Shown here: in pieces, positions 13,489 to 44,929 of the stretch
How the letters are laid out: every line of letters begins with the position of its first letter
How positions within the stretch are numbered: the stretch's first letter is position 1
Source: an uncultured Candidatus Saccharibacteria bacterium
GTDB taxonomy: Bacteria > Patescibacteriota > Minisyncoccia > Phycocordibacterales > UBA5272
DNA: 64,000 nucleotides
Direction of reading: 5' to 3'
Assembly: GCA_964457775.1 (NCBI GenBank)
Contig: CAYWEW010000003.1
Span: forward strand, 30,776 to 94,775
Notes under the pieces: model-generated
What the model saw: the letters and a program-made list of their open reading frames with translations, nothing else
Told to the model about the DNA's origin: nothing
Database searches by the model: none
Position numbers and translations under genes: made by a program

Positions 13489-15241
13489 AAAAATTAGTTC
13501 TCATGAAATAGATCCAGAAGATGTTTTTTTGGATTCCCAAAATTTGTCCTCATTGAATATTGATCAGATGCAAGGCCATTTTGAACGGCCACTTGGTAAG
13601 CATGTTTTCTATATTTTTTTAGTAGGAATTTTTATTCTTCTTGGTTCATATACTTACAGACTTTTTAGTATGCAAATTATTAATGGAGAGGTATACATTA
13701 AAAAAGCAGATAATAACCATTTAAAAAAATTACCACTCTTTGCACTTCGCGGAACTATTACTGATAGAAATGGAGAATTGCTTGCATGGAATACACTAGG
13801 TAACTATATTTATAAAGATACAAACAGTACATCTTCAGAAAAAGTTTCTGTAGATGATATCCCAATGCGTGTATACACCGAAGAAGAAGGTTTCTCACAT
13901 TTGCTTGGTTATGTGAGTTATCCAAAGCGCGATACTAGTGGTGTTTTTTGGCAAGATGAATATATAGGCAAAGATGGGGTGGAGAAACAGTATCAGACTT
14001 ATTTGCAAGGAACAAAAGGAGAAAGAATTATAGCTATAGATGCCCTTCATCAAATAGAGGCGCAGAATGTAGTTGTATACCCAGCTCACGGTGCTAATTT
14101 ACAACTTAGTATTGATAAAGAAATACAATCAAGGTTATATAAAGGCATAGAAGGTCTTGCTAAAAAAGCATCCTTTGTTTCTGGTGCTGGAGTGATTATG
14201 GATATTCATACAGGAGAAATTTTAGCGATAACCAGTTATCCTGAGTATGACAACAATATGATGACTAACGCTAAGACAAAAGAAGAGAATAAAAAGGTTG
14301 GAGAAGATTTGCTTGATAAAAGACAAAAGTTTTTGAATAGAGCTGTTAGTGGATTGTTTACGCCGGGCTCCACTGTAAAACCTTTTATTGCAATCGCAGC
14401 CCTTATGGAAGATGTTATTACACCTGAACAGAATATTTATAGTTCTGGTAAATTAGTTATTAAAAATAAATACGGTGGACCAGATACTGTTTTTAAAGAT
14501 TGGAAGGCTCATGGATATACTGATATGAGAAAAGCTCTAGAACAATCGTCTGATGAATATTTTTATCAAGTTGGAGGAGGTTATAAAGATCAGAAAGGCC
14601 TTGGGATTGATAGAATAAATAAATATGCTCGAATGTTTGGTTTTGGAACAACAACAGGAATAGATTTGCCTGCAGAGGCAAGCGGCAATATTCCATCACC
14701 AGAATGGAAAAAGAAAATATTCGGAGAGGATTGGCTGGTGGGTAATACTTACCATACTTCTATTGGTCAATACGGTTTTCAATTATCAGCTCTTGAACTT
14801 GTGCGAGGAGTTGCTGCAATTGCAAATGGAGGTTACCTCGTAACACCGCATGTACTTAAAGGACTGCCAACATCTAGTACGTCTATTGATTTGCCAGAAA
14901 GGGATTTGAAAGTTATAAGAGAAGGAATGCATCTTGTTGTTCATGGTGATGGTGGGACAGGTAAACCACTTAACATAACAGGAGTTGATGTTGCGGCAAA
15001 ATCTGGAACGGCGGAGTTGGGTGTTAGTAAGCAGTTAGTTAACTCTCTTATTACAGGATACTTTCCATACGAAGAACCAAAGTACGCTTTTGTTGTTGTA
15101 ATGGAAAAAGCAGATAGACATAATACTTTCGGTGCGGCTCACTCAATGAAGGAATTACTTGCCTGGATGAGAGACAATACCGACTATACAAAAACCTCTA
15201 AAGAGATTGAAAGTAAGAAAGATTTTATAAAAGATTTTTAA
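13451..15241 (+). CDS. mrdA: penicillin-binding protein 2 (class B PBP, elongasome transpeptidase)
   Basis: SxxK (STVK), SxN and KSGTAE motifs; position after mreBC. The start may be 13571. Confidence 0.85.
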   Translation: MSIFRRISTGRTRKISSHEIDPEDVFLDSQNLSSLNIDQMQGHFERPLGKHVFYIFLVGIFILLGSYTYRLFSMQIINGEVYIKKADNNHLKKLPLFALRGTITDRNGELLAWNTLGNYIYKDTNSTSSEKVSVDDIPMRVYTEEEGFSHLLGYVSYPKRDTSGVFWQDEYIGKDGVEKQYQTYLQGTKGERIIAIDALHQIEAQNVVVYPAHGANLQLSIDKEIQSRLYKGIEGLAKKASFVSGAGVIMDIHTGEILAITSYPEYDNNMMTNAKTKEENKKVGEDLLDKRQKFLNRAVSGLFTPGSTVKPFIAIAALMEDVITPEQNIYSSGKLVIKNKYGGPDTVFKDWKAHGYTDMRKALEQSSDEYFYQVGGGYKDQKGLGIDRINKYARMFGFGTTTGIDLPAEASGNIPSPEWKKKIFGEDWLVGNTYHTSIGQYGFQLSALELVRGVAAIANGGYLVTPHVLKGLPTSSTSIDLPERDLKVIREGMHLVVHGDGGTGKPLNITGVDVAAKSGTAELGVSKQLVNSLITGYFPYEEPKYAFVVVMEKADRHNTFGAAHSMKELLAWMRDNTDYTKTSKEIESKKDFIKDF

Positions 15242-15899: not shown

Positions 15900-17840
15900 T
15901 TGTTTTATATTCTACTTAAATATATAACAAGTGTGTATTCTCAAATTTACATAATTCAGCGTCTCCTAAATATAGCTCTGCCTTTTTTTGCTCTAATATT
16001 GCTTGTTGCAATCATTTTTTTTATTTATAAACTTTTTACGACAACAGATGAAGTTCGGGCTATAAATATGAGACGGATGACATTTAGTATAGTATCCATA
16101 TTTCTTGTCGTTATTCTTTGGGTTGTAGTTACTTTTTTAGGTTCTTCTACATATTTATTTAATAATTTTACCCACCTCTTTAAGGCATCTATATCTAATG
16201 ATTTGCATGCAAATCCAAATTTAGGGGGTGGGCCACTTGTTGTTTCCTTGACTGCGCCGGATGAGGTTATGAGAAAAATGGAAAATTGTACATATAGTAT
16301 TGGTTGGTTCGGGTCAAGTGGTAATGGTCTTTCCGTTGATTGGGGAGATGGAAAATCTGAGCCTAATCCAAATTCAAATGAAGGTAATAATGGTAAAAGT
16401 TGTACAGAGGTAGTAAAGAAACATATATATACTGCACCTGGAAAGTATACGATTAAAGTCACTAGTTGGCATCCTGGTCCAACTGATGGCGCTGTTATAG
16501 ATTGGATAGGAAAAACAAATGTGGAAGTAACTGTAAAAGATAATATTACATCCTCCATTGAGATTTTATCTCCTTCAGATGGAGAAACTTATTTTTATCA
16601 AAGTGATCCAGTGATTACTTGGAAGGTTATTGCTGGGAAGAAACTTTCACTTGTTAGTGAATTATTAGATAAAAATGATAATGTAATTGTTTCTGAAAAA
16701 AAAGATAACATTGCATTTAGTGGCGAAGGTAGTACTAGGTTTATATTAAGAGGTAGAACATACGATAATTTTTTAAAAAATGGTGATATCGAGACTACGA
16801 CAAGAGTTCGTCTTTTTGATAATAATACTATTGTTGCAGAAAACAGAAGTAAAGTTTTTACTTTATCAGCAAGGCATGTCGACTCAATAAATGAAAAACT
16901 TATAATATCTTCTGTTTCCAGCACTAGTCCATTTAGCGTAAAGGCATCATTTTCTTATTTTAATGCAATATGTGTCTCAAGCGTACTTGATTGGGGGGAT
17001 GGGTCACCTTTAGTAGAAAATATTAAACAAGTTCAAAAATCATGCCCACTAGATGATGAAACTAAAACATTTGAACATGTGTATCAAAAAATAGGTAAAT
17101 ACAAGATTATTTTAAAAACAAACGAATTTGATTTTGATGATGTTAAATTAGTCGTCCCTTATTATTCTAAGACAATTGAAGTTTCAGATGGGGGCATAAT
17201 AATTCCAAAGGATAAAACAGTTCCAGAAGTAGAAGTAGTGATTCCTGTTGTGGTGCCAAGTATTAGTATTAAATATGTATATCCAGATTACCTTAAGTTG
17301 AGTTATGAGAATTTATCAGAGTCAACAGCTGAGCTAATTAGTGAAAAAACAGGAAAAGTCGTGCATAGTATTGGTGTTATTAAGGATATGAGTGGTTCAC
17401 AACGAGTATATTTAAAGTCTATATCTGCTTTAGGAAAAAATTTAGAAAATGGGTATTATTATGTGCGTACCGTATCTAATTCAACATTAAAGCAAGAGGT
17501 TGTTCGTAGTGATCGCTTTTATTTTCAGCCTAATATTAATAATCCAGCAACCTTCATGTACCCTCTAAAGGATATAATTATAAAAAAAGGAGAACCATTA
17601 AAAGTTGATTATAAAATTAATCAAAATGAACTGGACGGTGATCCACTTTCTATCACAATTAGTATTGTTGGTGATAATTCTGTGATTGGGGGAGGGTACG
17701 GTGAAAAAGCAGTAATTGGGGAACATTCTCATGAATGGATTATTGATGAGGTTGGTATATATCGTCCTTACATAAATGTACGGTTTAGAGAAATTTCATA
17801 TACATTTCCTGGAGCGCTTATTACTGTGGTTGGTAATTAA
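15900..17840 (+). CDS. membrane-anchored surface protein with two PKD-like domains
   Basis: VDWGDG...KHIYTAPGKYTIKV and LDWGDG...HVYQKIGKYKI match the PKD consensus WDFGDG..HxYxxxGxYxV. N-terminal hydrophobic segments. ORF-track start is TTG; ATG at 16068 (MRRMTF...) is a likely true start. Confidence 0.6.
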   Translation: MFYILLKYITSVYSQIYIIQRLLNIALPFFALILLVAIIFFIYKLFTTTDEVRAINMRRMTFSIVSIFLVVILWVVVTFLGSSTYLFNNFTHLFKASISNDLHANPNLGGGPLVVSLTAPDEVMRKMENCTYSIGWFGSSGNGLSVDWGDGKSEPNPNSNEGNNGKSCTEVVKKHIYTAPGKYTIKVTSWHPGPTDGAVIDWIGKTNVEVTVKDNITSSIEILSPSDGETYFYQSDPVITWKVIAGKKLSLVSELLDKNDNVIVSEKKDNIAFSGEGSTRFILRGRTYDNFLKNGDIETTTRVRLFDNNTIVAENRSKVFTLSARHVDSINEKLIISSVSSTSPFSVKASFSYFNAICVSSVLDWGDGSPLVENIKQVQKSCPLDDETKTFEHVYQKIGKYKIILKTNEFDFDDVKLVVPYYSKTIEVSDGGIIIPKDKTVPEVEVVIPVVVPSISIKYVYPDYLKLSYENLSESTAELISEKTGKVVHSIGVIKDMSGSQRVYLKSISALGKNLENGYYYVRTVSNSTLKQEVVRSDRFYFQPNINNPATFMYPLKDIIIKKGEPLKVDYKINQNELDGDPLSITISIVGDNSVIGGGYGEKAVIGEHSHEWIIDEVGIYRPYINVRFREISYTFPGALITVVGN

Positions 17841-17880
17841 TTGTGTAGTTTTTATATAGTAACATAGACTGTATATTCAA

Positions 17881-17983
17881 GAAAAGGTGAAGTTGAAGAT
17901 ACAATTGTATCAACTGTTTAGTTCGTAGTTACTGGTTACTAGTTGGTGGTAAATACAAAAGCGACAACAAAGTTGTCGCTTTT
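17881..17983 (+). repeat. direct repeat copy 2 (degenerate greA tail ...KGEVEDTIVSTV* + terminator hairpin)
   Basis: Matches 15731-15832. Confidence 0.85.
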
Positions 17984-18080
17984 GTATTTTATATTTTAGT
18001 CGACTTAGTAATTGGTATCTGGTATTATTAATTGATATTAGTATGTATTAACTACTAACCAGTAACTATAAACTACCCAT

Positions 18081-19538
18081 ATGGCCTCCATCGAAGAACT
18101 TCGCACAGAAAGAATTAAAAAATTAGAGAAATTAAAAGCTCTTGGAATTTCTTCATATCCGAGTTCATCTTCTCGTACTCATGAATTAAAATATGTGGCG
18201 GATAATTTTACTTCACTTGAAAGTCATCAAGATTCAATTATTGTAAATGGCCGTGTTATGTCATCACGTGGACAAGGAGCTATTTGTTTCGTTGATTTGT
18301 ATGACGGAACAAATAGAATGCAAGTTGTTATTAAGTTACCAGAATCAACTGAAGAAGTGATGAATTTTTATCGTGACTACGTAGATATAGGAGACTTTGT
18401 AGAAGTAACTGGAAAAGTTTTTATTACAAAATCAGGTCAGCAAAGTATTCTTGTTAATAAAGTTTCCATGCTATCAAAAGCATTACTTCCACTTCCAGAT
18501 AAATTCCACGGACTTCAGGATGAAGAACTTCGTATGCGTGAAAGATATCTAGATATACTTACGAATCCTGAACTTAGGGAGTTATTAGAAAAGAAGACAA
18601 AATTTTGGGAGGTGACACGCTCATTCTTAAAAGAAAAGGGGTTCTTAGAAGTTGAAACACCAACTCTTGAAGTAACTACAGGAGGTGCAGAGGCTAGACC
18701 ATTTGCTACACATCATTATGATTTTGATTTGCCAGTATTTATGCGTATATCAGTTGGAGAACTTTGGCAGAAGAGATTAATGGCCTCTGGTATCCCGAAG
18801 ACTTTTGAAATAGGCCGTGTATATCGTAATGAAGGTTCATCGCCAGATCATCTCCAGGAATTCACTAACTGTGAATTTTATATGTCATATGCAAATTATG
18901 AAGATGGAATGAAGTTAACTCAAGAACTATATCGCAAATTAGCAGAAGATGTATTCGGTACGACAACATTTACAACACGTGGACACACATTTAATCTTGC
19001 TGATGAATGGACTAAAATTGACTATAGTGAAGAAATAAAACGTCAGACATCTATTGATATAAATACTGCAACCGATGATGAAATAAAAAACAAATTACAA
19101 GATTTGAAAGTGAAGTATGACGGTGTTAATCGTGAGCGATTAATTGATACACTTTGGAAGTATTGTCGTAAGAATATTACTGGTCCATCTTTTGTAATTA
19201 ATCATCCAATAATTATTGCTCCACTTGCAAAGAAGAATACTGATGGTAAAACTGTACAAATGTTCCAACCAGTTATCGCAGGAAGTGAAATTGGACGTGG
19301 CTACTCAGAACTTAATGACCCACTTGATCAAAGAGAGAGATTCGAAGTACAGCAGAAGTTATTAGCTGGAGGGGACGAAGAGGCGATGATGGCAGATTGG
19401 GAATTTGTGGATATGTTAGAACATGGTATGCCCCCTACATGTGGATTTGGTTTTGGCGAAAGATTGTTCGCATTTTTGGCAGATAAACCAGTTCGTGAAG
19501 TACAGACATTCCCACTTACAAGACCAAAAATAATTTAG
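18081..19538 (+). CDS. lysS: lysyl-tRNA synthetase, class II
   Basis: OB anticodon-binding domain plus class II motifs 1-3 (FxEVETP, RNEG, GxGxGxER). Confidence 0.95.
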   Translation: MASIEELRTERIKKLEKLKALGISSYPSSSSRTHELKYVADNFTSLESHQDSIIVNGRVMSSRGQGAICFVDLYDGTNRMQVVIKLPESTEEVMNFYRDYVDIGDFVEVTGKVFITKSGQQSILVNKVSMLSKALLPLPDKFHGLQDEELRMRERYLDILTNPELRELLEKKTKFWEVTRSFLKEKGFLEVETPTLEVTTGGAEARPFATHHYDFDLPVFMRISVGELWQKRLMASGIPKTFEIGRVYRNEGSSPDHLQEFTNCEFYMSYANYEDGMKLTQELYRKLAEDVFGTTTFTTRGHTFNLADEWTKIDYSEEIKRQTSIDINTATDDEIKNKLQDLKVKYDGVNRERLIDTLWKYCRKNITGPSFVINHPIIIAPLAKKNTDGKTVQMFQPVIAGSEIGRGYSELNDPLDQRERFEVQQKLLAGGDEEAMMADWEFVDMLEHGMPPTCGFGFGERLFAFLADKPVREVQTFPLTRPKII

Positions 19539-32391: not shown

Positions 32392-32517
32392 AATTATTTA
32401 TAATGTGTATAACTAATTAGACAATAGTGAAGCTCGGGTGTAAAATTAATTTATGGAGAATATTAACTCAGTTTTTTTGACGAAAATAAAAAATCATAAT
32501 AGTAATTAAAAAAAGTT

Positions 32518-33804
32518 ATGAAGAACCTACCTCAACAACTAAAGGGCATAGCAATAGGAACCATTTTCTTTATTGGTCTATTATATGTAAGTGCATGGAC
32601 TGGAGCTCCAACAGGAACACCACCAGCAAACAACGTAGATGCCCCTGTAAATGTTAGTATTAACTCGCAATATAAAGATGGAGCATTAGGTGTTGGAGGT
32701 TTGATTCGTGGTTATGCAGACGCAATATTTGATGGAGGTGTAAAAATAGGAACAACAACAGACGTTTGTAGTTCAGCATTAGGTGGAACATTGCGCTATA
32801 ACAGCAGTGCTAGATGTGTAGAATTTTGTGATGAGTCATCATGGAAATGTACAAATCAGACAGCTACACCACCAACATGTACTTCGTTTACTTATTCCAG
32901 CTGGTCCCCGTCAGTTTGTGTTAATGGTACACAAACAAGAACTGTAACAACTTCATTACCATCTGGCTGTGTTGGAGGAACGTCATCAACAAGTCAAAGC
33001 TGTACCGTCCCAGATTTTTCTTATACTGCAACTATTTCTGACACACCAAATTATAATTTAAGAGATGTTGTTTTGGCTGCTGGATGGGATGGATCTAAAA
33101 AAGTGGTTGCAACTATTACTATAAACGGTGACGTATATTCAACTTCAAATGCTATTCCTGCCTTCGATACTGGAGATCTACCTGCAGGTTCAAGTGTTAC
33201 AATTATAAATAATGGTAATATTATCGGTAAGGGTGGTAATGGTGGAGTAGGGTATGGATCAAGTTTATGGGCAGGCTTTGGATACGCCTATACAGTTGGT
33301 ACCCCAGGTGAAGATGGTGGTCCAGCACTAAAAGTAAGAGCTATTACAGTTATTAGGAATTATGGTGTTATAGCAGGAGGAGGAGGAGGTGGTGGTGGTG
33401 GTGGATACGCATATAATAATTATTATTATCAGAACTATGGTAGTGCTGGTGGCGGTGGAGGTGGTGGTGGACAGGGATACAACGCAGGTAGTGCTGGTGG
33501 TGGTGGTATTTTAAGTGGATACAGTTCAGCGAGTGGTAATTCTGGTAGCTCTGGAACATTTAGTTCTGCTGGATTGGGTGCTACAGCTGTAAATTCTTCT
33601 AATTCACAAGGAGACGGTGCAGCTGTATATGGAAGTGCTGGAGGAAATGGTGGAACACTTGGCAATCCAGGACAAGTAGGAGGTAGTGGATCTGCTCAGT
33701 ATGCTAGTGGTGGATATCCTGGAGGACTGGCAGGGAATTCAGTTATAGGTAATTCATATGTATCTTGGGAAGTTGTTGGAACTAGATTGGGTCCTGTTAA
33801 TTAA
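32518..33804 (+). CDS. N-terminally anchored Gly-rich extracellular protein (cassette A, paralog of 41344..42315)
   Basis: Hydrophobic anchor then AWTGAPTGTPPANNVDAPVNV...IGTTT, Cys-rich middle, (G)n/GGxGG C-terminus. Confidence 0.6.
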   Translation: MKNLPQQLKGIAIGTIFFIGLLYVSAWTGAPTGTPPANNVDAPVNVSINSQYKDGALGVGGLIRGYADAIFDGGVKIGTTTDVCSSALGGTLRYNSSARCVEFCDESSWKCTNQTATPPTCTSFTYSSWSPSVCVNGTQTRTVTTSLPSGCVGGTSSTSQSCTVPDFSYTATISDTPNYNLRDVVLAAGWDGSKKVVATITINGDVYSTSNAIPAFDTGDLPAGSSVTIINNGNIIGKGGNGGVGYGSSLWAGFGYAYTVGTPGEDGGPALKVRAITVIRNYGVIAGGGGGGGGGGYAYNNYYYQNYGSAGGGGGGGGQGYNAGSAGGGGILSGYSSASGNSGSSGTFSSAGLGATAVNSSNSQGDGAAVYGSAGGNGGTLGNPGQVGGSGSAQYASGGYPGGLAGNSVIGNSYVSWEVVGTRLGPVN

Positions 33805-33840
33805 ATTTATGAATTTTTTTTACTTTAAACTATATATTAT

Positions 33841-34437
33841 ATGTTAGGTTATCCAATAAAAACAATCCTCGTATCTATTCTTATTTTTATGTTAGGAGTT
33901 GTTTCTAGTGTTTTTTTAACTATTTTATATTTCAAGATTAGTGGAAAAAATCCGGAAATGAATTATGCAAATACTAATACAAATAGTGTAAATGTAGACA
34001 CAAATAAACCTATTGTTAAAAATGAAGAAACAAAGCAGAATTTTGAGATGAATTATATAGTTGGAGAAATAATTTCTTTAAGTGGAAATAAATTAAACAT
34101 TAAAATTAATCCAGTATTAAATCCTATTTTTAAAGATAAAGGGGAAAGTGTTGTGGAGGTAACAGTAACAGATATGACCAAATTTGTGTCTATGGTACAA
34201 AAAGACGCGACAATTTTTAAAAAGGAGTTACTAGATTTTCAAAAAATACCCATTGCAAATAGAGATTTTTCTATGTCACCTCAACCCTTCTTAGAAAAGG
34301 AAACATCTCGCGACTTGTTTACTATAGGTAAAATGGTTGTAGTAAAATCAAAGGAAAAAATATCTAGTTCTACCACATCAATAAAAGCAGAATCAGTTGG
34401 TATAGCACCAGAGATACCTAAAGCTACATCACGATAA
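33841..34437 (+). CDS. membrane-anchored beta-rich partner protein (cassette A, paralog of 42350..42934)
   Basis: N-terminal TM; shared blocks with paralog (Y(I/F)VG(E/D)..S.SG, ..KD...F.KE...(F/Y).(K/N)IPI..R). Confidence 0.55.
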   Translation: MLGYPIKTILVSILIFMLGVVSSVFLTILYFKISGKNPEMNYANTNTNSVNVDTNKPIVKNEETKQNFEMNYIVGEIISLSGNKLNIKINPVLNPIFKDKGESVVEVTVTDMTKFVSMVQKDATIFKKELLDFQKIPIANRDFSMSPQPFLEKETSRDLFTIGKMVVVKSKEKISSSTTSIKAESVGIAPEIPKATSR

Positions 34438-34587: not shown

Positions 34588-34967
34588 GGTGCAGTAGTTG
34601 TGCGCCAAGTGTTCTTTTTAATGCAATTCAAGATAAGGATCCAATCATGAAAAATTGTGATAAGTGTCTCAAGTCACCCATTGTAACCGGAGCTGATATC
34701 AAGAGTTACAGACACGGTCTCCACATGAATGTGAATACTTTTGCTGGAGTTTTTTAAACCAGTCGGCAGAATGTCTCACGGCTTGAGCGATTGAATCGCC
34801 CACTTACAGAGGAGGAAAAAAGAAGTTTGCGCTTCGTTAGAAAAGACTGGAAATTTGATCCAAAGAAGTGTCGCGAGACTTTGATGGTTGATTCCAGAAA
34901 CCAATAAGCCCATTGATGTACCAAACAGTAACAACAACACTGGAAGTATGTCAGTGGGTTGTTTTTT
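34588..34967 (+). ncRNA. candidate orphan transcript (unknown RNA or cluster of micro-ORFs)
   Basis: Extended -10 TGATATAAT at 34573-34581; hairpin + T6 at 34931-34967; no ORF of at least 60 aa on either strand; GC-richer than flanking DNA. Confidence 0.3.
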
Positions 34968-35020: not shown

Positions 35021-35413
35021 ATGAATGATTCAAAACCACACCTCGCTATTTCTGTTGGAGATACAGCCACACTAATTAACTATATGGTGGATGGTGAAGT
35101 AGTCGTGTCACACACGCATCCAATCGGTTACAAACATATTGAGGCTGATGGTATGAGTATTATTGCCGGATCAAAATTTATAGATGGAATTTTATATGCG
35201 CTAGAATTTATTTCACTACACGATAGAATTCCTACCGAATTTAAATTAGTTTCACCTAGATATTCAAGATGGATAGGCGAAGTAATAGAAAATAATTCTT
35301 ATACACAGTTTTATACTGACGGAGCACCAATAAGTGTTACACTAGAAGGTATAACAGACGCTCCTCTTTCATATGCACGACATTCGCAAACCATACATTC
35401 GTTCAAGCTCTAA
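35021..35413 (+). CDS. hypothetical protein (130 aa)
   Basis: ORF whose 3' end overlaps the next gene by 41 nt in another frame. Confidence 0.4.
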   Translation: MNDSKPHLAISVGDTATLINYMVDGEVVVSHTHPIGYKHIEADGMSIIAGSKFIDGILYALEFISLHDRIPTEFKLVSPRYSRWIGEVIENNSYTQFYTDGAPISVTLEGITDAPLSYARHSQTIHSFKL

Positions 35414-36785
35414 TCGTGACCTCAATTCCCGTGTTGAGCAATTTGAAAGACACTCGTATGAAAGTGAAGATTATGATGAACGTGAAAATGGTCCAGTACA
35501 AATTCCAGTTAGACGTGTTAGAAGAAATGTAAATGATATGGATATGTATCCACGTAGAAGGATGGGTGATGTAAGGTATGAGGACGATGAGCCGTATGAA
35601 GAAGAAAGACACAATCGAAGAGCTAGTGATAATCAAACAAGGAGAATACATCGTGATGGCACTTTAGGTACTTGGATTTTTATAGCGGTAGTTGTTGTTT
35701 TTGCAGTTGTTGCAGGATTATTTACATATATATTCGATAGTGCCACTGTAACAATTGTCCCAAAGTACAAAGATGTTAACGATTACAATAAAACAATTTT
35801 ATTTTCACAAAAGGAGACAGATTCTAGTAGTGTACCTTTCGTTGTAATTACCGCATCATCTACAAAAAGTAAAATATTGGCACTTTCTGAATCAAAAAAA
35901 GTAGAATCAAAAGCCTCAGGTAAAGTCATTATTTATAATAATTATGACTCTACTCCACAGAAACTTATTAAGAATACTAGATTAGAATCTGCGGCTGGTA
36001 AAATTTATCGCATTAATCAATCAGTTACTGTTCCAGGTAAAAAGGGAGATATCCCAGGTAGTGTAGAAGCAACTGTATATGCTGATAGTAATGGAACATC
36101 ATATAACACCCAAGCAACTGATTTTAGTATTCCTGGATTCAAGGGGACACCTCAAGATAAAGCCTTTTATGCAAAAGGCAAGGGTGCAATCTCTGGTGGC
36201 TCGTCAGGTAATGTCTCCTCAGCTTCACTTTCTGATATTAATGCTGCAAAAGATGAACTGGCGTTGGAACTTGCTCAAGAAGTAAAGGCTGCATTAATGA
36301 AAATAAACAAAGAAGGATATATTGGTCTTTATGGAGCCTCAGAAATTACTTATATTGATAATGAGATTGAAGTATTGAATGGAACAACAGGTACATATGA
36401 AGTAACTGCTACAGGACATCTTATACTTGCTGATGCTTCTAAGTTAGCTCAGATTATCGGAAAAGAAGTTAGGGGTTACGCTAATGAACCAGTAAGACTA
36501 GGTTATACAGAAACACTTACATATACAAGAAAAGACACGGACCGTATTTCTACCAGTACAGCACTGTCAATTTTAGTAGAAGGTAAACCTCGCATTATTT
36601 GGGTTAGTGATACAGATAGTATTAAGGAAATGGTTCGCAGTAAGAAGCGAGATGAATTCAAATCTTTAATGAAAAATATAAGTACTATACAAACTGCTGC
36701 AATTAGTTTTTCACCATTATGGCTTTCTACTTTTCCATCTGATGTAGGAAAAATTGCTATTGTTGAGTCGTTACCAAAAAGATAA
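35373..36785 (+). CDS. membrane-anchored protein with basic/acidic cytoplasmic tail and large extracytoplasmic domain
   Basis: Charged 110-aa N-terminus, one TM (WIFIAVVVVFAVVAGLF), then 340 aa beta-rich. Confidence 0.55.
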   Translation: MHDIRKPYIRSSSNRDLNSRVEQFERHSYESEDYDERENGPVQIPVRRVRRNVNDMDMYPRRRMGDVRYEDDEPYEEERHNRRASDNQTRRIHRDGTLGTWIFIAVVVVFAVVAGLFTYIFDSATVTIVPKYKDVNDYNKTILFSQKETDSSSVPFVVITASSTKSKILALSESKKVESKASGKVIIYNNYDSTPQKLIKNTRLESAAGKIYRINQSVTVPGKKGDIPGSVEATVYADSNGTSYNTQATDFSIPGFKGTPQDKAFYAKGKGAISGGSSGNVSSASLSDINAAKDELALELAQEVKAALMKINKEGYIGLYGASEITYIDNEIEVLNGTTGTYEVTATGHLILADASKLAQIIGKEVRGYANEPVRLGYTETLTYTRKDTDRISTSTALSILVEGKPRIIWVSDTDSIKEMVRSKKRDEFKSLMKNISTIQTAAISFSPLWLSTFPSDVGKIAIVESLPKR

Positions 36786-40837: not shown

Positions 40838-41245
40838 ATGGCTACAGAAACAAAACAGAGATACATAGAAGCAGTAGGACGTCGTAAGACAGCGATTGCT
40901 CGTGTTCGTATTACACCTGCAACAAAGACTTCTTTCGTTGTTAACGATAAGGATGTTAAGGAATATTTCGTAACAGAAGAACTTCAAATGATTGCTCAAG
41001 AAGCGATTAGTAAATCAGAAGTTGGTGAAAAGTTCTCAGTATCTATTCACGTATTAGGTGGTGGTATTCATGCACAAGCAGAAGCTGTACGTCATGGACT
41101 ATCTCGTACGCTCGTTCTTCGTGATGAAAACATCAAGAACACTCTTAAGAAACTTGGATTTCTAAAGCGTGACTCACGTCAAGTTGAAAGAAAGAAATTC
41201 GGTCTTAAGAAAGCACGTAAAGCTCCAACTTGGTCAAAGCGTTAA
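40838..41245 (+). CDS. rpsI: 30S ribosomal protein S9
   Basis: C-terminal ...GLKKARKAPTWSKR. Confidence 0.9.
   Translation: MATETKQRYIEAVGRRKTAIARVRITPATKTSFVVNDKDVKEYFVTEELQMIAQEAISKSEVGEKFSVSIHVLGGGIHAQAEAVRHGLSRTLVLRDENIKNTLKKLGFLKRDSRQVERKKFGLKKARKAPTWSKR
41219..41245 (+). repeat. direct repeat copy 1 (rpsI last 9 codons incl. stop)
   Basis: aaagctccaacttggtcaaagcgttaa; 26/27 identical to 42965-42991. Confidence 0.8.
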
Positions 41246-41252
41246 TAATAAT

Positions 41253-41281
41253 AAACTGCACATATGTGCAGTTTATTTTTT
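41253..41281 (+). terminator. rpsI intrinsic terminator (ctgcacat/atgtgcag palindrome + T-run)
   Basis: Perfect 8-bp palindromic stem followed by tttattttt. Confidence 0.65.
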
Positions 41282-41343
41282 CAAGTAAGTCAAATGTGGA
41301 TAAGTTACATAATGGGTATCAGTTTTGTGTTACAGTGTCCTAT

Positions 41344-42315
41344 ATGAACAGTGGATCAACAATAAATACAAGAACTCAAGATTCTTTCACTAAGGCATCT
41401 TTGATAATGATATTATCTATAATACTTGGTACTGTAACTTATGCATGGGTAGGTCCAACAAGTATGGCTCCTAACGGAAATGTACCTCCACCGATTAATG
41501 TTGGTTCAGTTCTGCAAGAAAAGTTGGGAGGACTTAAAATATTTGGTGACTTAACTGTTGGAACGACAACTAGTCCAAATGCAACTTTAACTGTCCATGG
41601 GAAAATATATTCTGAATCTACATTAAGTTCTGATACTGCACATACAGTTGTCACTAAGGATTTTATCCCAAGGTGTTCTTCAGGTAAGTTCTTAACAAGT
41701 GATGGGAATCAGCTGTTGTGCAAAACAGCCACAGTTCCTCCTTCCTGCGGAACAGAGTCAAATGTTGGTCCAAACACAGTTGTTACGTTTACATCTTCAT
41801 GTGTGTTCGTTGTTCCTGACGGAGTTAATTCTGTTAATTTGAAAGTGGTTGGAGGTGGAGGTGGAGGTGGAGGAGGGTCTGATTTTGGTGGTGCTAGTAG
41901 TGGGGGACAGAGTGGAACACAGTCATCGTTCTCAACAGTTGTAGCTTTACCTGGTGGTGGTGGAGGTGGAGCAGGGATGCTTCAATATAATTACGTGTGT
42001 TATGGAGGCGCAGCAGGTGCTGGATACCCTTCTGGAACAGAAGGGGTAACTTGTGGATATGGATCGGTTACTGGCGCTTCCAATGGTTCTGGATACGGTT
42101 CAGGTGGGGATGGTAAAACCTCTGCTATTGATGGTGGTGGAGGAGGAGGTAGTGGTGGTGCTGGACAAGTTGTTACACAGACATTAAGTGTCACTTCAGG
42201 TCAAAACATATCTGTTGTAGTTGGGGGTGGAGGATCACGAGGATCTAGTACATATGGTAATGTTGGTACTTCTGGTACAAACGGTGTTGTTACTGCTACT
42301 TATACTACACCATAA
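41344..42315 (+). CDS. N-terminally anchored Gly-rich extracellular protein (cassette B)
   Basis: AWVGPTSMAPNGNVPPPINV...VGTTT N-terminus parallels cassette A; poly-Gly blocks; start at ATG 41344 (ORF-track 41230 overlaps rpsI). Confidence 0.6.
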   Translation: MNSGSTINTRTQDSFTKASLIMILSIILGTVTYAWVGPTSMAPNGNVPPPINVGSVLQEKLGGLKIFGDLTVGTTTSPNATLTVHGKIYSESTLSSDTAHTVVTKDFIPRCSSGKFLTSDGNQLLCKTATVPPSCGTESNVGPNTVVTFTSSCVFVVPDGVNSVNLKVVGGGGGGGGGSDFGGASSGGQSGTQSSFSTVVALPGGGGGGAGMLQYNYVCYGGAAGAGYPSGTEGVTCGYGSVTGASNGSGYGSGGDGKTSAIDGGGGGGSGGAGQVVTQTLSVTSGQNISVVVGGGGSRGSSTYGNVGTSGTNGVVTATYTTP

Positions 42316-42349
42316 TCCAAAATATAATGGAAAAGTTCTTCTAAAATTT

Positions 42350-42934
42350 ATGAGTCCGAATTTAAAAAATATTATTATATATATTCTCATCTTAATTATA
42401 GGAGTTTTTATTGGTGGTTACTCAGTGAATTTATATTTCAAGACCAAAATTCAGAAAATATTTATGAGTAATGTTACTTCTAGCGAATCAGTAAATAATG
42501 ATGTATTTGATAACAATGCTCAAGCATCTAACTCAAAAATTTTAAAAACAAAGTATTTTGTTGGAGATGTTGTTTCTTTTTCTGGTGATACAATTATTAT
42601 AGACTCTGAAAATATATTGTATCCGTTGTCCGTTTCTAAAGAAAAGCACCAAGTAACCGTCAAAATAGATAATAATACAAAATTTATTAGTACCACCTTA
42701 AAAGATAAGGCAATTTTTGAAAAGGAAATGCGTGATTATAAAAATATTCCAATTGACAAAAGAGCGCAGATTACATCACCAAAATCTTTAATTGAAAAAG
42801 AAATACCTCGTAATTCAATTAGTGTTGGTAAAAAAATAGTCATTAAATCAAAAGAAGAGTTAGTTTCTACTACTAAATATTTTGTAGCTGAATCGATTAG
42901 TTTAACTTATGAATTGTCTAAAGCCACAAATTAA
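42350..42934 (+). CDS. membrane-anchored beta-rich partner protein (cassette B)
   Basis: Paralog of 33841..34437; start at ATG 42350 (MSPNLKN...). Confidence 0.55.
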   Translation: MSPNLKNIIIYILILIIGVFIGGYSVNLYFKTKIQKIFMSNVTSSESVNNDVFDNNAQASNSKILKTKYFVGDVVSFSGDTIIIDSENILYPLSVSKEKHQVTVKIDNNTKFISTTLKDKAIFEKEMRDYKNIPIDKRAQITSPKSLIEKEIPRNSISVGKKIVIKSKEELVSTTKYFVAESISLTYELSKATN

Positions 42935-42964
42935 ATACCGGGGACTCTTTTAAGGAAACCTCTT

Positions 42965-42991
42965 AAAGCTCCAACCTGGTCAAAGCGTTAA
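42965..42991 (+). repeat. direct repeat copy 2 (rpsI 3' end duplicate)
   Basis: aaagctccaacctggtcaaagcgttaa followed by its own hairpin terminator. Confidence 0.8.
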
Positions 42992-42995
42992 AAAC

Positions 42996-43022
42996 AAAAA
43001 CCTGTCATTTGACAGGTTTTTT
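42996..43022. terminator. intrinsic terminator (cctgtca-ttt-tgacagg flanked by A5/T6)
   Basis: Hairpin with flanking A/T runs on both strands. Confidence 0.6.
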
Positions 43023-43044
43023 GTTTTTAGAATTACATATTTGT

Positions 43045-43506
43045 ATGCTAAAATTAATTCATATGAATAATCTAGAAAAAAATACACCACAAAATAATGA
43101 ACCAGAGAATCCAGGGAGAAGAGGTTTTCTTGGGAAGATGTTCGGAGCTGCTGCACTTGGAACAGTTGCTGCTATGGCTGGAAATAAATATATTAAACAA
43201 GAGCTCGAGAATAATAATGAAATTAATAATCTATACTTATCTTTTAAAGATAAAGAAAATGATATTCACAAAGTAAACGAAGCTACTGCTTTATTAATAG
43301 AAGAAATGAATAAAAGCAGTATTGACCAGGTAAAAATTTCAGGAATGGGTCATCCAAATGATCGTATAGATATTTTGAGGGACTTTTTAACCAAACACCT
43401 TAATTCCAAAATTGGAAATAAATATTCATTTAAGAATAGAATATTTTCATCTGGTGTTTATAAAAGAGAGGACTTAATTGATATTTTGAGCGCCACAACA
43501 AAGTAG
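43045..43506 (+). CDS. hypothetical secreted protein with twin-arginine (Tat) signal
   Basis: PGRRGFLGKMFGAAALGTVAAMAG = S/T-RRxFLK-type Tat signal; start 43045 or 43063 (ORF-track TTG 43009 lies inside the terminator). Confidence 0.5.
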   Translation: MLKLIHMNNLEKNTPQNNEPENPGRRGFLGKMFGAAALGTVAAMAGNKYIKQELENNNEINNLYLSFKDKENDIHKVNEATALLIEEMNKSSIDQVKISGMGHPNDRIDILRDFLTKHLNSKIGNKYSFKNRIFSSGVYKREDLIDILSATTK

Positions 43507-43581
43507 TTTTGTAATTTTAAATTAGCCGTGTTAGTGTAGTTTTAGAGGTTTCAATTAGTTGTCTAATTTGTGGAGGAAAAA

Positions 43582-43836
43582 ATGAATACACGTGAAATAA
43601 TTGTAAATCTTGATGAAGACTCAGTAAAGAGAATCGGAATACTTTTTGGAGATGATGTTACGACAATGGAGGGTGCTGAAGATTTTTTTAAACTAGCGAT
43701 GGTAACCCTTTTATCAATGGGTGAAGAGATGAAAAAGGGGAGAATAATTGTTTCTATGAACCCAAACGCGGTTGGTGGTTTTACAGGATTGAAATTTGAT
43801 TTCCCAAAGCCAAAACCAATATGCAGAGTCAAATAG
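43582..43836 (+). CDS. hypothetical small protein (84 aa), SD-bearing
   Basis: GGAGGA SD 43572-43577, 4 nt before ATG. Confidence 0.45.
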   Translation: MNTREIIVNLDEDSVKRIGILFGDDVTTMEGAEDFFKLAMVTLLSMGEEMKKGRIIVSMNPNAVGGFTGLKFDFPKPKPICRVK

Positions 43837-43846
43837 ATTTTAAATC

Positions 43847-43878
43847 AAACAGCACTTAGGTGCTGTTTTTGTTTTTTT
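43847..43878 (+). terminator. intrinsic terminator (acagcac-ttag-gtgctgt + T-run)
   Basis: Hairpin followed by a T-run. Confidence 0.6.
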
Positions 43879-43939
43879 ACTTAATTATGCTAGTGTTCTT
43901 GTAGAAATACTGCACATTCATATTTAAAGGAGAAACAAA

Positions 43940-44743
43940 GTGCTTGGATATCTTCTTGAAAAAAGACCACAAGAAATTTATAGACTTGAGTTAAATGAAA
44001 ATGGTTTTGTTTTTAAAATTCGAAATGCATTTTTTGAGTACTTACTCAATTGTATTAAAAAAGAGGAAGACAAAATTCATTTAATAAAACTTGCAAATGA
44101 TGTAGTTGAAGGCGTAGTCATTTTCTACATAAATTTGCCATTTATCAGATATCCAAATTTTTCACACAAATCAACAGATTGGAAGAGTTTGTGCAAATGT
44201 GCAGAAGATATGAGTTTTCTATTTCGTCTGCTTAATTATCCACCAACAGACTTGGATTTGGTAGGTAATCACTCATACTGTTTAAGTGAAAAGACACAGC
44301 TCATGACTATTTCTACTAGTCATTATAGTAATGACGGTTTTCACTCTTCTCCGATTGAAGTTGGGTTTAGTAGAAAGGCTTGTGAACTTCTTGTTACTTC
44401 ATTTAAACAGGATACACACTTTAAAGAATGTGAGGAGTCTGCGCATAGTGTGTACTTTGGTTTATCCTCCAAAACAAAAAGTGAATTTGAGAGAAGTAAA
44501 AAGACTTTCCTAAAATATTCCGGAGGATTCATGGGGATAACTGCCATGGTAAGAGGCGGAGGCACTCCACACTTCGTTGTTCCAGGAAACTGTGCTTGTT
44601 TGGGTGCAAATCCAGATAGGTTCAAGTTTGATAGGGATACGCATTCTCACAACATGGATTCTTCATTACAACAGATGAGTATGCTCGCATCTTTGGTTAC
44701 GTTCTGGAATAAGGTTCTAATTCCATTACAGGACGGAAGCTAA
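43940..44743 (+). CDS. hypothetical Cys/His-rich protein (267 aa), SD-bearing, GTG start
   Basis: AAGGAGAAACAAA then GTG; no recognised family. Confidence 0.5.
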   Translation: MLGYLLEKRPQEIYRLELNENGFVFKIRNAFFEYLLNCIKKEEDKIHLIKLANDVVEGVVIFYINLPFIRYPNFSHKSTDWKSLCKCAEDMSFLFRLLNYPPTDLDLVGNHSYCLSEKTQLMTISTSHYSNDGFHSSPIEVGFSRKACELLVTSFKQDTHFKECEESAHSVYFGLSSKTKSEFERSKKTFLKYSGGFMGITAMVRGGGTPHFVVPGNCACLGANPDRFKFDRDTHSHNMDSSLQQMSMLASLVTFWNKVLIPLQDGS

Positions 44744-44756
44744 TCATTTGATTTTG

Positions 44757-44785
44757 AATCACCACACTTGCTGTGGTGATTTTTC
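44757..44785 (+). terminator. intrinsic terminator (atcaccaca-N5-tgtggtgat + T5)
   Basis: Hairpin followed by a T-run. Confidence 0.6.
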
Positions 44786-44929
44786 TTGACTTTTTTTTCA
44801 ATATAATTTATATATTATATGTGCGAGAAAAATGCTATACTGATAATAACGGAATTACGGAAACGACAGATAATTCAGGAATACAGAAATGTGTATATTA
44901 GTAAGATTTTGTAATGATATTGAGTACGT

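Follow-up and report, generated by a model that had tools for sequence, protein, structure and literature searches.

What are two similar pairs of genes doing inside the housekeeping block of a Patescibacterium, and how did the second pair come to lie there? We addressed this question in a stretch of 64,000 nucleotides from an uncultured Candidatus Saccharibacteria bacterium (hereafter the window), which has a GC content of about 35% and whose nearest named relatives are metagenome-assembled genomes of Patescibacteria. An original prediction had seen in it, twice, a glycine-rich protein (A) followed by a membrane-anchored partner (B), and had proposed a mobile surface or adhesion module made of two unrecognised families, perhaps relevant to host attachment. 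How Patescibacteria recognise and hold their hosts is largely unexplained beyond type IV pili and a few lectin-type adhesins (PMC10633639). All four open reading frames (ORFs) are present as predicted:

32518..33804, + strand: A1, predicted exported mosaic adhesin of 428 aa (ORF)
33841..34437, + strand: B1, single-pass membrane protein of 198 aa with an OB-fold domain (ORF; paralog of B2)
41344..42315, + strand: A2, predicted exported mosaic protein of 323 aa (ORF)
42350..42934, + strand: B2, 194-aa paralog of B1 (ORF; BLASTP against B1)

A1 and B1 are 36 nt apart, A2 and B2 34 nt, and the ATG at 41344 is the A2 start also in a public record (L087). We are modestly inclined to regard each unit as a surface adhesin (A) with a membrane-tethered accessory protein (B), which would be its docking or assembly partner.

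A phage-type head behind a Patescibacteria N-terminal module

Four parts can be told apart in A1:

32518..32595, + strand: signal-peptide-like segment (aa 1-26; MKNLPQQLK plus 17 uncharged residues ending in VSA), read from the sequence
32596..32757, + strand: conserved Patescibacteria N-terminal module (aa 27-80; WTGAPTGTPPANNVDAPVNV...Q.K.G.LG...KIGTTT), by hidden Markov model (HMM), E=1.3e-20
32764..33009, + strand: Cys-rich spacer (aa 83-164) with one 'CTSFTYSSWS..C..G.Q.R......P.GC.GG' repeat, by repeat comparison
33010..33801, + strand: gp38-type adhesin head (aa 165-428), an attachment-like subdomain and a polyglycine-rich sandwich, by Pfam, AlphaFold2 and Foldseek

The head is the part that can be assigned to a known family. 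Residues 172-374 of A1 match the Pfam family GP38 (PF05268) with 33.3 bits (gathering cutoff 25) over model positions 5-204 of 218, and PHROG tail-fibre families match A1 at E=3e-16. The AlphaFold2 model, built with 44 homologs, has a predicted local distance difference test score (pLDDT) of about 97 from residue 165 to the C-terminus. When this head was searched against the PDB with Foldseek, the receptor-binding domain of PP01 gp38 (9v85_C; E=1.6e-12, TM score 0.68) and S16 gp38 (6f45_D; E=2.2e-10, TM score 0.60) were recovered and nothing besides these two below E=0.5. As modelled, the A1 head is a member of a known adhesin fold, gp38, and the finding is therefore not categorically new. That neither family could be recognised does not hold for this head, which has a curated Pfam entry; the N-terminal module, B1 and B2 match nothing in Pfam or NCBIfam. 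The original prediction had added that its proposal would fail if the genes turned out to be known pilin/usher or phage tail-fibre families, or to resemble each other only in low-complexity sequence, and half of this came about, as the A1 head belongs to a phage tail-fibre adhesin family. Together, the secretion-type N-terminus and the gp38-matching head support A1 as an exported surface adhesin, and it is on this domain evidence that the proposed surface or adhesion module stands for A. Searches of GenBank phages with the heads (tblastn) gave three weak partial matches for A1 and none for A2, the low-complexity filter having probably suppressed matches, and scans of viral contigs with the A1 head and with B1, sensitive to close relatives only, gave nothing.

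The N-terminal module (hereafter N-module) is defined here as a hydrophobic leader followed by WTxPTxxPPxGNVxAPINVGxxxQxKxGxL. Its HMM was built from 78 independent genome loci and contains no sequence of the window. Applied to all 210 ORFs of 50 aa or more in the window, it finds A1 (at the E-value given above) and A2 (E=1.8e-18) and none of the other 208; the shared module is therefore real, as is the N-terminal motif that had been quoted for the A genes. A scan with one genome per species places the N-module in 79 loci, nearly all of them from Patescibacteria (Saccharibacteria, Paceibacterota, Nealson-, Taylor-, Nomura- and Falkowbacteria, and others). The proteins measure about 95 to 1284 aa, if an apparently fortuitous match in a Prevotella contig is left out of account. 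These proteins have in common the leader and the module only, with the consensus ...AAAWTEPTAAPPGGNVDAPINVGSSAQIKSGALGV..., and tandem N-module paralogs are frequent among the loci. Their C-termini are varied and include Peptidase_S74, an intramolecular chaperone of trimeric phage fibres. The module has no match in Pfam, NCBIfam or the PDB sequences, a PDB sequence search with A2 gave none either, and none of 17 pattern matches in IMG/VR viral contigs could be confirmed.

The leader of the family consists of a basic n-region and a hydrophobic segment. Ahead of the invariant W, the uncharged stretch measures 17 residues in each of A1 and A2 (family median 20). Position -1 to this W is Ala in 41/71 N-module proteins and position -3 is small or aliphatic, an AxA-like site. 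From these features we infer a cleavable Sec signal peptide, with cleavage between VSA and W in A1 and between TYA and W in A2, the alternative being an uncleaved signal anchor. As the predicted cleavage falls before the W, the conserved peptide would be the mature N-terminus. The hydrophobic anchor attributed to A thus looks more like a signal peptide. A prepilin-like cleavage after it had also been suggested, and it is rejected because the conserved motif comes after the hydrophobic segment, not before it. Type IV pilins or prepilins were discarded as candidates for A and B alike: no G|F(M)TLIE-type motif lies ahead of the hydrophobic segment, and Pfam and NCBIfam give neither an N-methylation domain nor any other pilin match.

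The spacer of A1 has no Pfam match and low model confidence. Its CTSFTYSSWS...C unit, present once in A1, is found in tandem in Patescibacteria surface proteins (P0079, P0086 and P0004), and in a related neighbour-type protein of 541 aa at locus L077 the repeat scores as Pfam TSP1_ADAMTS (thrombospondin type-1).

A2 is composed of a signal-like segment (aa 1-34), an N-module from W35 (41446) to about aa 76, a Cys pair and a Gly-rich head from about aa 133. It scores 21.0 bits against Pfam Gly_rich_2 (PF21722; E=3.7e-4), below the gathering cutoff of 24.3, matches PHROG tail families weakly (E=9e-7) and does not match Pfam GP38; the 541-aa protein of L077 passes the Gly_rich_2 cutoff with 29.4 bits. 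The A2 head is probably another phage-type glycine-rich domain, whose membership is not established. Pairwise BLASTP of A1 and A2 aligns the first ~55 aa only (E=9e-4), all else having E>70. When a 44-sequence profile of the A1 head was compared with A2 (hhalign), the poly-Gly run GGGGGGGG alone aligned, with a probability of 8.9%; the poly-Gly/GGxGG tails that had been listed as a shared feature are therefore a likeness of low-complexity composition. At the sequence level the two heads are not detectably homologous, and the common part is an N-terminal module of about 70 aa. Thus the clear paralogy claimed for both pairs stands for B (see below) and fails for A along its full length.

Module and head do not travel together. 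A protein of 383 aa, P0003 (L003 3790-4941), is the positional ortholog of A1 in a related genome, with the same GP38 head and the same alaS-A-B synteny, and its N-module is of the A2 type (62% identity to A2, 41% to A1). The module of A1 is closest to those of P0104 and of a 196-aa protein of L001 (62-70%), both with quite different C-termini. Consequently, module and head recombine independently and are shuffled between paralogs. A split architecture was also observed: in L077 (5004-8667), L136 and L137 an N-module fibre ending in Peptidase_S74 is followed by the 541-aa type of protein (signal peptide, TSP1 repeats, Gly_rich_2) and then by B. This arrangement is reminiscent of phage gp37 (the fibre) with a separate gp38 adhesin; in A1 and A2 a single polypeptide is found.

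The B family and its neighbours

Two features are recognised in B1:

33850..33942, + strand: transmembrane helix (aa 4-34), an AlphaFold2 helix
34048..34410, + strand: OB-fold beta-barrel (aa 70-190) with a conserved helix insert (KD..F.KE..DF), AlphaFold2 model

For the B genes the paralogy is genuine (B1 against B2, 39% identity over 125 aa, E=7e-28); both proteins carry the motifs that had been quoted for them, and the B-family HMM matches no other ORF in the window. In the model of B1 the helix is followed by a disordered linker (36-65) and a confident beta domain (70-190, pLDDT about 90); in B2 the transmembrane segment spans about aa 8-27 and the OB-fold domain about aa 67-187. The assignment to the OB-fold is drawn from the five-stranded barrel topology of the modelled domain and from its structural neighbours. 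We define the B family, seeded by B1 and B2, as proteins of ~140-290 aa with an N-terminal transmembrane helix, a linker and an OB-fold carrying G..TK..KD..F.KE..F..PP.PF..KE. A profile search over 1.84 billion representatives gave 105 B clusters at E<=1e-3, all in this size range except one protein of 993 aa. A strong hydrophobic helix is present at the N-terminus of 42/43 members, and distant B proteins have in addition Pro-rich tails at the C-terminus. A word-index homolog search with B1 returned one protein only, 97% identical, and the close B clade was not found in JGI metagenomes.

B1 and B2 have no match in Pfam, NCBIfam or PADLOC and none in PHROG below E=0.07; a PDB sequence search with the B profile gave no match, and a BFVD fold search gave generic OB-fold/S1-like matches only, none of them a viral structural match. 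DUF5666 (PF18914) does not match B1 or B2 and matches 4/43 family members weakly (best E=2.2e-4), a distant likeness. B2 falls outside the group of B1 and its orthologs (39-43% versus 46-49% identity), which makes the second copy either an old paralog or something acquired, and not a recent duplication.

The association of B with N-module genes extends well beyond the window. The distant B clade is represented by 62 metagenome loci, and in 15 of the 26 in which both neighbours can be tested an N-module gene lies directly beside B; several other loci of this clade have one two genes away. Most of the loci reached from B and inspected by hand show the same neighbourhood. An N-module protein is encoded directly upstream of B in L089, L090 and L091, that of L090 being Peptidase_S74-tipped, and next to B also in L083. 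In L003/L154, alaS, A (383 aa, GP38), B and infA are kept in synteny. In L005 and in L006/L007, fibre-like proteins of 1358 to 2040 aa end 23 nt before B, one of them with an S74-type end. B homologs adjoin GP38-, Gly_rich_2- and S74-tipped partners. B thus stays homologous while the heads of its partners change, and B1 and B2 are 39% identical although the A1 and A2 heads are unrelated. We take this to suggest that B serves the constant region shared by the fibre proteins, or else their export or anchoring; both a cognate immunity protein and a tip-specific chaperone are disfavoured by it.

Other observations weigh against a strict two-gene unit. B can precede or follow the N-module gene (over all testable neighbours of B, it is upstream in 7 cases and downstream in 16), and the partner of B in L005 has a signal peptide and no recognisable N-module. 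In the reverse direction a B gene occurs in 7/79 N-module loci only, so B is not a general requirement. The A-B association is strong from the B side and optional from the A side, with variable gene order; what had been called a two-gene module persists as a recurrent neighbourhood, not as a fixed order.

Two further kinds of protein were observed beside these genes. Proteins with a signal peptide and a repeated 'G[YWF]AWS...GW[IL]' motif (GxAWSxxxGW proteins) lie on the same strand beside N-module genes in 33/79 loci and in L001 (examples in L001 12762-14294, L012, L029, L050, L055, L077 and L085); the L001 member has no Pfam match. They may be a third component of this surface system. Of the second kind are small proteins (84-134 aa) with one transmembrane helix and a tail of short acidic or Lys-rich repeats ('..E..K.L..L..'), which recur beside N-module and B genes (L001 9619-9996, L008 6182-6514, L010 5670-5924, L025 7038-7412, L083 6269-6547, L089 7698-7994, L090 7962-8363). 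The one in L001 ends 5 nt before A1, and the window has none.

The cassette behind rpsI and the alaS-infA locus

A1-B1 and A2-B2 are both on the leading strand, within a housekeeping block of the order ychF, alaS, A1-B1, two conserved ORFs, infA, rpmJ, rpsM, rpsK, rpsD, rpoA, rplQ, rplM, rpsI, A2-B2, three ORFs, grpE, dnaK, dnaJ. The second pair is bracketed as follows:

41209..41258, + strand: direct repeat copy 1, the functional rpsI 3' end including the stop codon (repeat search; 28-nt core 41218-41245)
41247..41280, + strand: hairpin and T-run directly 3' of rpsI (inverted repeat, 17-nt arms, 94% complementary)
42955..43004, + strand: direct repeat copy 2, a non-coding remnant of the rpsI 3' end just past B2 (84% identical to copy 1; core 42964-42991)
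42996..43021, + strand: terminator-like hairpin closing A2-B2 (11-pair stem and T-run)

The last ~45-50 nt of rpsI, stop codon included, recur 1746 bp downstream, and the insertion at the rpsI tail seen in the original prediction is real. Between the copies the 28-nt core has one mismatch; by chance, 0 such matches would be expected. Both copies have a hairpin and T-run of their own behind them, and the 1.75 kb between the copies contain A2 and B2 only.

The insertion is polymorphic among relatives. In L001, which carries a near-identical A1, the rpsI terminator leads straight into the grpE promoter (L001 20926-21140), without A2-B2. In L154 the gap between rpsI and grpE (16815-19152) holds four other genes, no rpsI-tail repeat and no A2-B2. 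From this comparison, the rpsI-grpE gap is a variable spot and A2-B2 a lineage-specific cassette directly behind rpsI. The gap of the window (41250-44900) has five ORFs. One of them, 43570..43836 (88 aa), shares 65% identity with the gene that comes first after rpsI in L154; hence this part may be ancestral and A2-B2 a later arrival. There is no integrase or recombinase between the repeats, and the adjacent ORFs have no recombinase Pfam match: of the features of an integrative mobile element, att-like repeats at a gene 3' end are present and a carried integrase is not. No flanking direct repeats were found around A1-B1. The mobility that had been proposed is thus upheld for A2-B2 by the bracketing repeat and by the missing copy in two relatives, and finds no recombinase to go with it. 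A cassette mobilised in trans and recombination after DNA uptake are the candidate mechanisms of insertion.

Just past the rpsI-tail remnant lies an ORF of 165 aa (43009-43506) with a twin-arginine-like motif (RRGFLGKMFGAAALGTVAAMAG) and no meaningful Pfam match. A public contig of 119,867 bp (L087; GCA_013565695.1, JACCDT011196272.1) encodes an identical B2 protein in the same gene order. A protein near-identical to A1 (P0002) is found in GCA_052033735.1 within the same alaS-A-B synteny, and a second near-identical copy in GCA_020049755.1 (contig number 260712). Both GCA_013565695.1 (contig numbering above 1.19 million) and GCA_020049755.1 are very large, and the organism could therefore have been carried along in a metagenome or host genome project.

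The alaS-infA locus is conserved as well as changing. The alaS...infA synteny around A1-B1 is kept in three genomes. Upstream of A1 there is one further feature:

32418..32446, + strand: promoter-like site 5' of A1, TAGACA-17-TAAAAT (consensus scan, 10/12 positions matched)

The count of such sites in the region is not above that of shuffles, so this is weak evidence for an A1 promoter. Downstream of B1, two overlapping ORFs (35021-36785; 130 aa, and 470 aa with one transmembrane helix) occupy the same position in L001 and L003/L154 and have no significant Pfam match except a weak GlxA beta-barrel. At 34656-34838 lie the remains of a gene that L001 still has complete (14434..14682, 82 aa); the similarity is 52% identity over 71 aa, and the reading frame is no longer intact. 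Between B1 and that gene, L001 has the 196-aa N-module protein and a 510-aa GxAWSxxxGW protein, both missing in the window. These differences indicate that the alaS-infA locus is also in flux.

What the A-B units may do, and comparison with known systems

We hypothesize that A is a mosaic of three parts, namely the lineage-specific N-module with its Sec leader, a short Cys-rich spacer and a glycine-rich phage-type receptor-binding head. A would be exported via Sec and held on the envelope of its producer by the constant N-module, and its variable head would bind a ligand on another cell, plausibly the host of the Patescibacterium; host attachment in an episymbiont is thus a plausible role, for which A-B is a candidate. 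B, with its transmembrane helix, flexible linker of about 30 aa and OB-fold, would act at the outer face of the membrane as docking or assembly partner, through the constant part of A and not through its head. The unit would be exchangeable, A2-B2 having presumably entered as a 1.75-kb cassette behind rpsI and duplicated the last ~45 nt of that gene. Besides the optional pairing with its variable gene order, the L005 partner without an N-module and the missing recombinase, two points weigh against this proposal: AlphaFold2 confidence is low over the first 160 residues of A1 (N-module and spacer), and the charge bias of B (net +1.7 on the N side, +0.8 on the C side) favours an outside-facing domain only weakly.

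As the main alternative, the same components could belong to a larger, undescribed surface-filament or fibre system of Patescibacteria, in which the N-module would be a polymerisation or incorporation signal (e.g. a donor-strand or base-plate-docking peptide), A1 and A2 tip or minor subunits, and B, the small 'E..K.L..L'-repeat membrane proteins and the GxAWSxxxGW proteins the assembly or anchoring machinery. A conserved peptide right after the signal peptide is typical of self-assembling fibre subunits, and the same-strand recurrence of GxAWSxxxGW genes, the frequent tandem N-module paralogs with small repeat proteins alongside, and the joint presence of B, N-module and GxAWSxxxGW genes in L077, L044, L040, L089, L104, L114, L117 and L131 are all in line with such a system. 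We nevertheless think it unlikely, as the 64-kb window has no GxAWSxxxGW protein, no ATPase, usher, sortase or secretin is seen in these clusters, and the components are individually optional. A chaperone-usher pilus is not indicated either, since A, B and their neighbours have no usher, chaperone or pilin domain match in Pfam.

A further alternative is a degraded prophage that left a tail-fibre or adhesin gene (A) with its assembly chaperone (B). The GP38 and PHROG tail-fibre matches of A1 and A2, the classical layout of a fibre gene followed by a small gene and the att-like repeat around A2-B2 speak for such a remnant, which we consider highly improbable: apart from the A genes themselves there is no phage gene at either locus, and A1-B1 sits in the alaS...infA synteny of three genomes; virion proteins lack a secretion-type leader such as that of A; the N-module is unconfirmed in IMG/VR, and viral contigs show no close relatives of B1 or of the A1 head; and B has a transmembrane helix, with neither a PHROG nor a viral structural match at the limits given above. 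A1 as a virion component capping a gp37-type fibre was discarded on similar grounds (no phage genes nearby, a locus syntenic in cellular genomes, and the secretion leader).

We also find it hard to credit a toxin-immunity pair, in which A would be secreted as a toxin or bacteriocin, delivered by its constant N-terminus and acting through its variable C-terminus, and B would be the small membrane protein that confers immunity. Many bacteriocins are Gly-rich, and a constant N-terminus, a variable C-terminus and an adjoining small transmembrane protein do resemble polymorphic toxin loci. However, the A1 head has an adhesin fold and no toxin domain, a B that stays homologous while the heads change is the reverse of what cognate immunity would show, B can lie ahead of the N-module gene, and there is no toxin-type Pfam match nor any match in a PADLOC defence-system search. 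That the pairing is chance or a low-complexity artefact, as the purely Gly-rich likeness of A1 and A2 beyond the first ~70 aa might suggest, has a negligible chance of being true and is refuted for B and the N-module by the B1-B2 alignment and by the N-module HMM (E=1e-18 to 1e-20), the adjacency recurring in unrelated metagenomes.

Returning to the reading of A-B as adhesin and accessory protein, its units are concrete and testable candidates for host attachment, with a phage-style receptor-binding tip on a phylum-specific N-module. In the literature that we searched, neither the N-module nor the B family is described, nor are gp38-like proteins in Patescibacteria. Within the reach of these libraries and this literature, what is new is the fusion of a gp38 head to a phylum-specific secretion/anchoring module, the unannotated B family, the recurrent neighbourhood and the rpsI-tail cassette, which suggests a route of adhesin exchange. 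The N-module, the B family and the neighbourhood could help to annotate hundreds of 'hypothetical' Patescibacteria proteins. It is tempting to go further and propose a phylum-wide surface-fibre system, in which the N-module would send interchangeable phage-type heads (gp38-like, Gly_rich_2, S74) to the surface, served by B, the small repeat membrane proteins and the GxAWSxxxGW proteins, while heads and A-B cassettes would be swapped between loci and genomes, here at the rpsI tail, and would change the host that can be attached. We offer this tentatively, as possible and short of probable; if true, it would be a cellular counterpart of phage tail-fibre host-range switching.

Several known systems invite comparison. 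Other membrane-anchored or secreted bacterial proteins with an OB-fold (CcmE, the YobA/BOF family, DUF5666) differ from B in that B1 and B2 match no Pfam or NCBIfam family and have no haem-binding motif, and the B family appears confined to Patescibacteria-type contigs and linked to fibre genes. Tail-fibre chaperones (Tfa, T4 gp38, gp57A) are likewise encoded by a small gene immediately 3' of a fibre or adhesin gene, whereas B has a transmembrane helix and an OB-fold, no PHROG, Pfam or viral-structure match, and can lie upstream of its partner. The gp38 adhesins (T2/T6/S16/PP01; PF05268; PDB 6F45, 9V85) resemble the A1 head most: the model superposes over ~267 columns with 26% identity and has the same glycine-rich motifs that build the polyglycine sandwich. 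However, gp38 is a free virion protein of ~260 aa that caps the gp37 fibre, while in A1 the domain is fused to a preceding secretion leader, Patescibacteria-specific N-module and Cys-rich spacer, and the gene lies in a cellular housekeeping region without phage genes; A2 lacks a gp38 head.

The nearest functional analogue of A is, by architecture, the family of mosaic adhesive trimer (MAT) adhesins of Bdellovibrio bacteriovorus, with its S74 and non-S74 subfamilies (Caulton et al. 2024, PMC10769870). In these proteins a signal peptide precedes an invariant N-domain, which presumably binds an element of the predator surface, and swappable tips follow; the fibres have been shown on the predator surface (PMC10769870). 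By analogy, A has the same succession of predicted signal peptide, constant N-domain and variable tip in a bacterium living on bacteria, and N-module proteins too include Peptidase_S74-tipped members. The differences are that the MAT N-domain is beta-rich and has ~130 aa, the N-module being Pro-rich and ~35-70 aa long; that A1 and A2 are short (323-428 aa) and without a long beta-helical stalk; that gp38 is monomeric, so trimerisation would be at most putative; and that no B-like partner has been described for MATs. If confirmed, the A-B units would provide a parallel to the MAT fibres, with a convergent or shared use of phage receptor-binding architecture in bacteria that live on bacteria.

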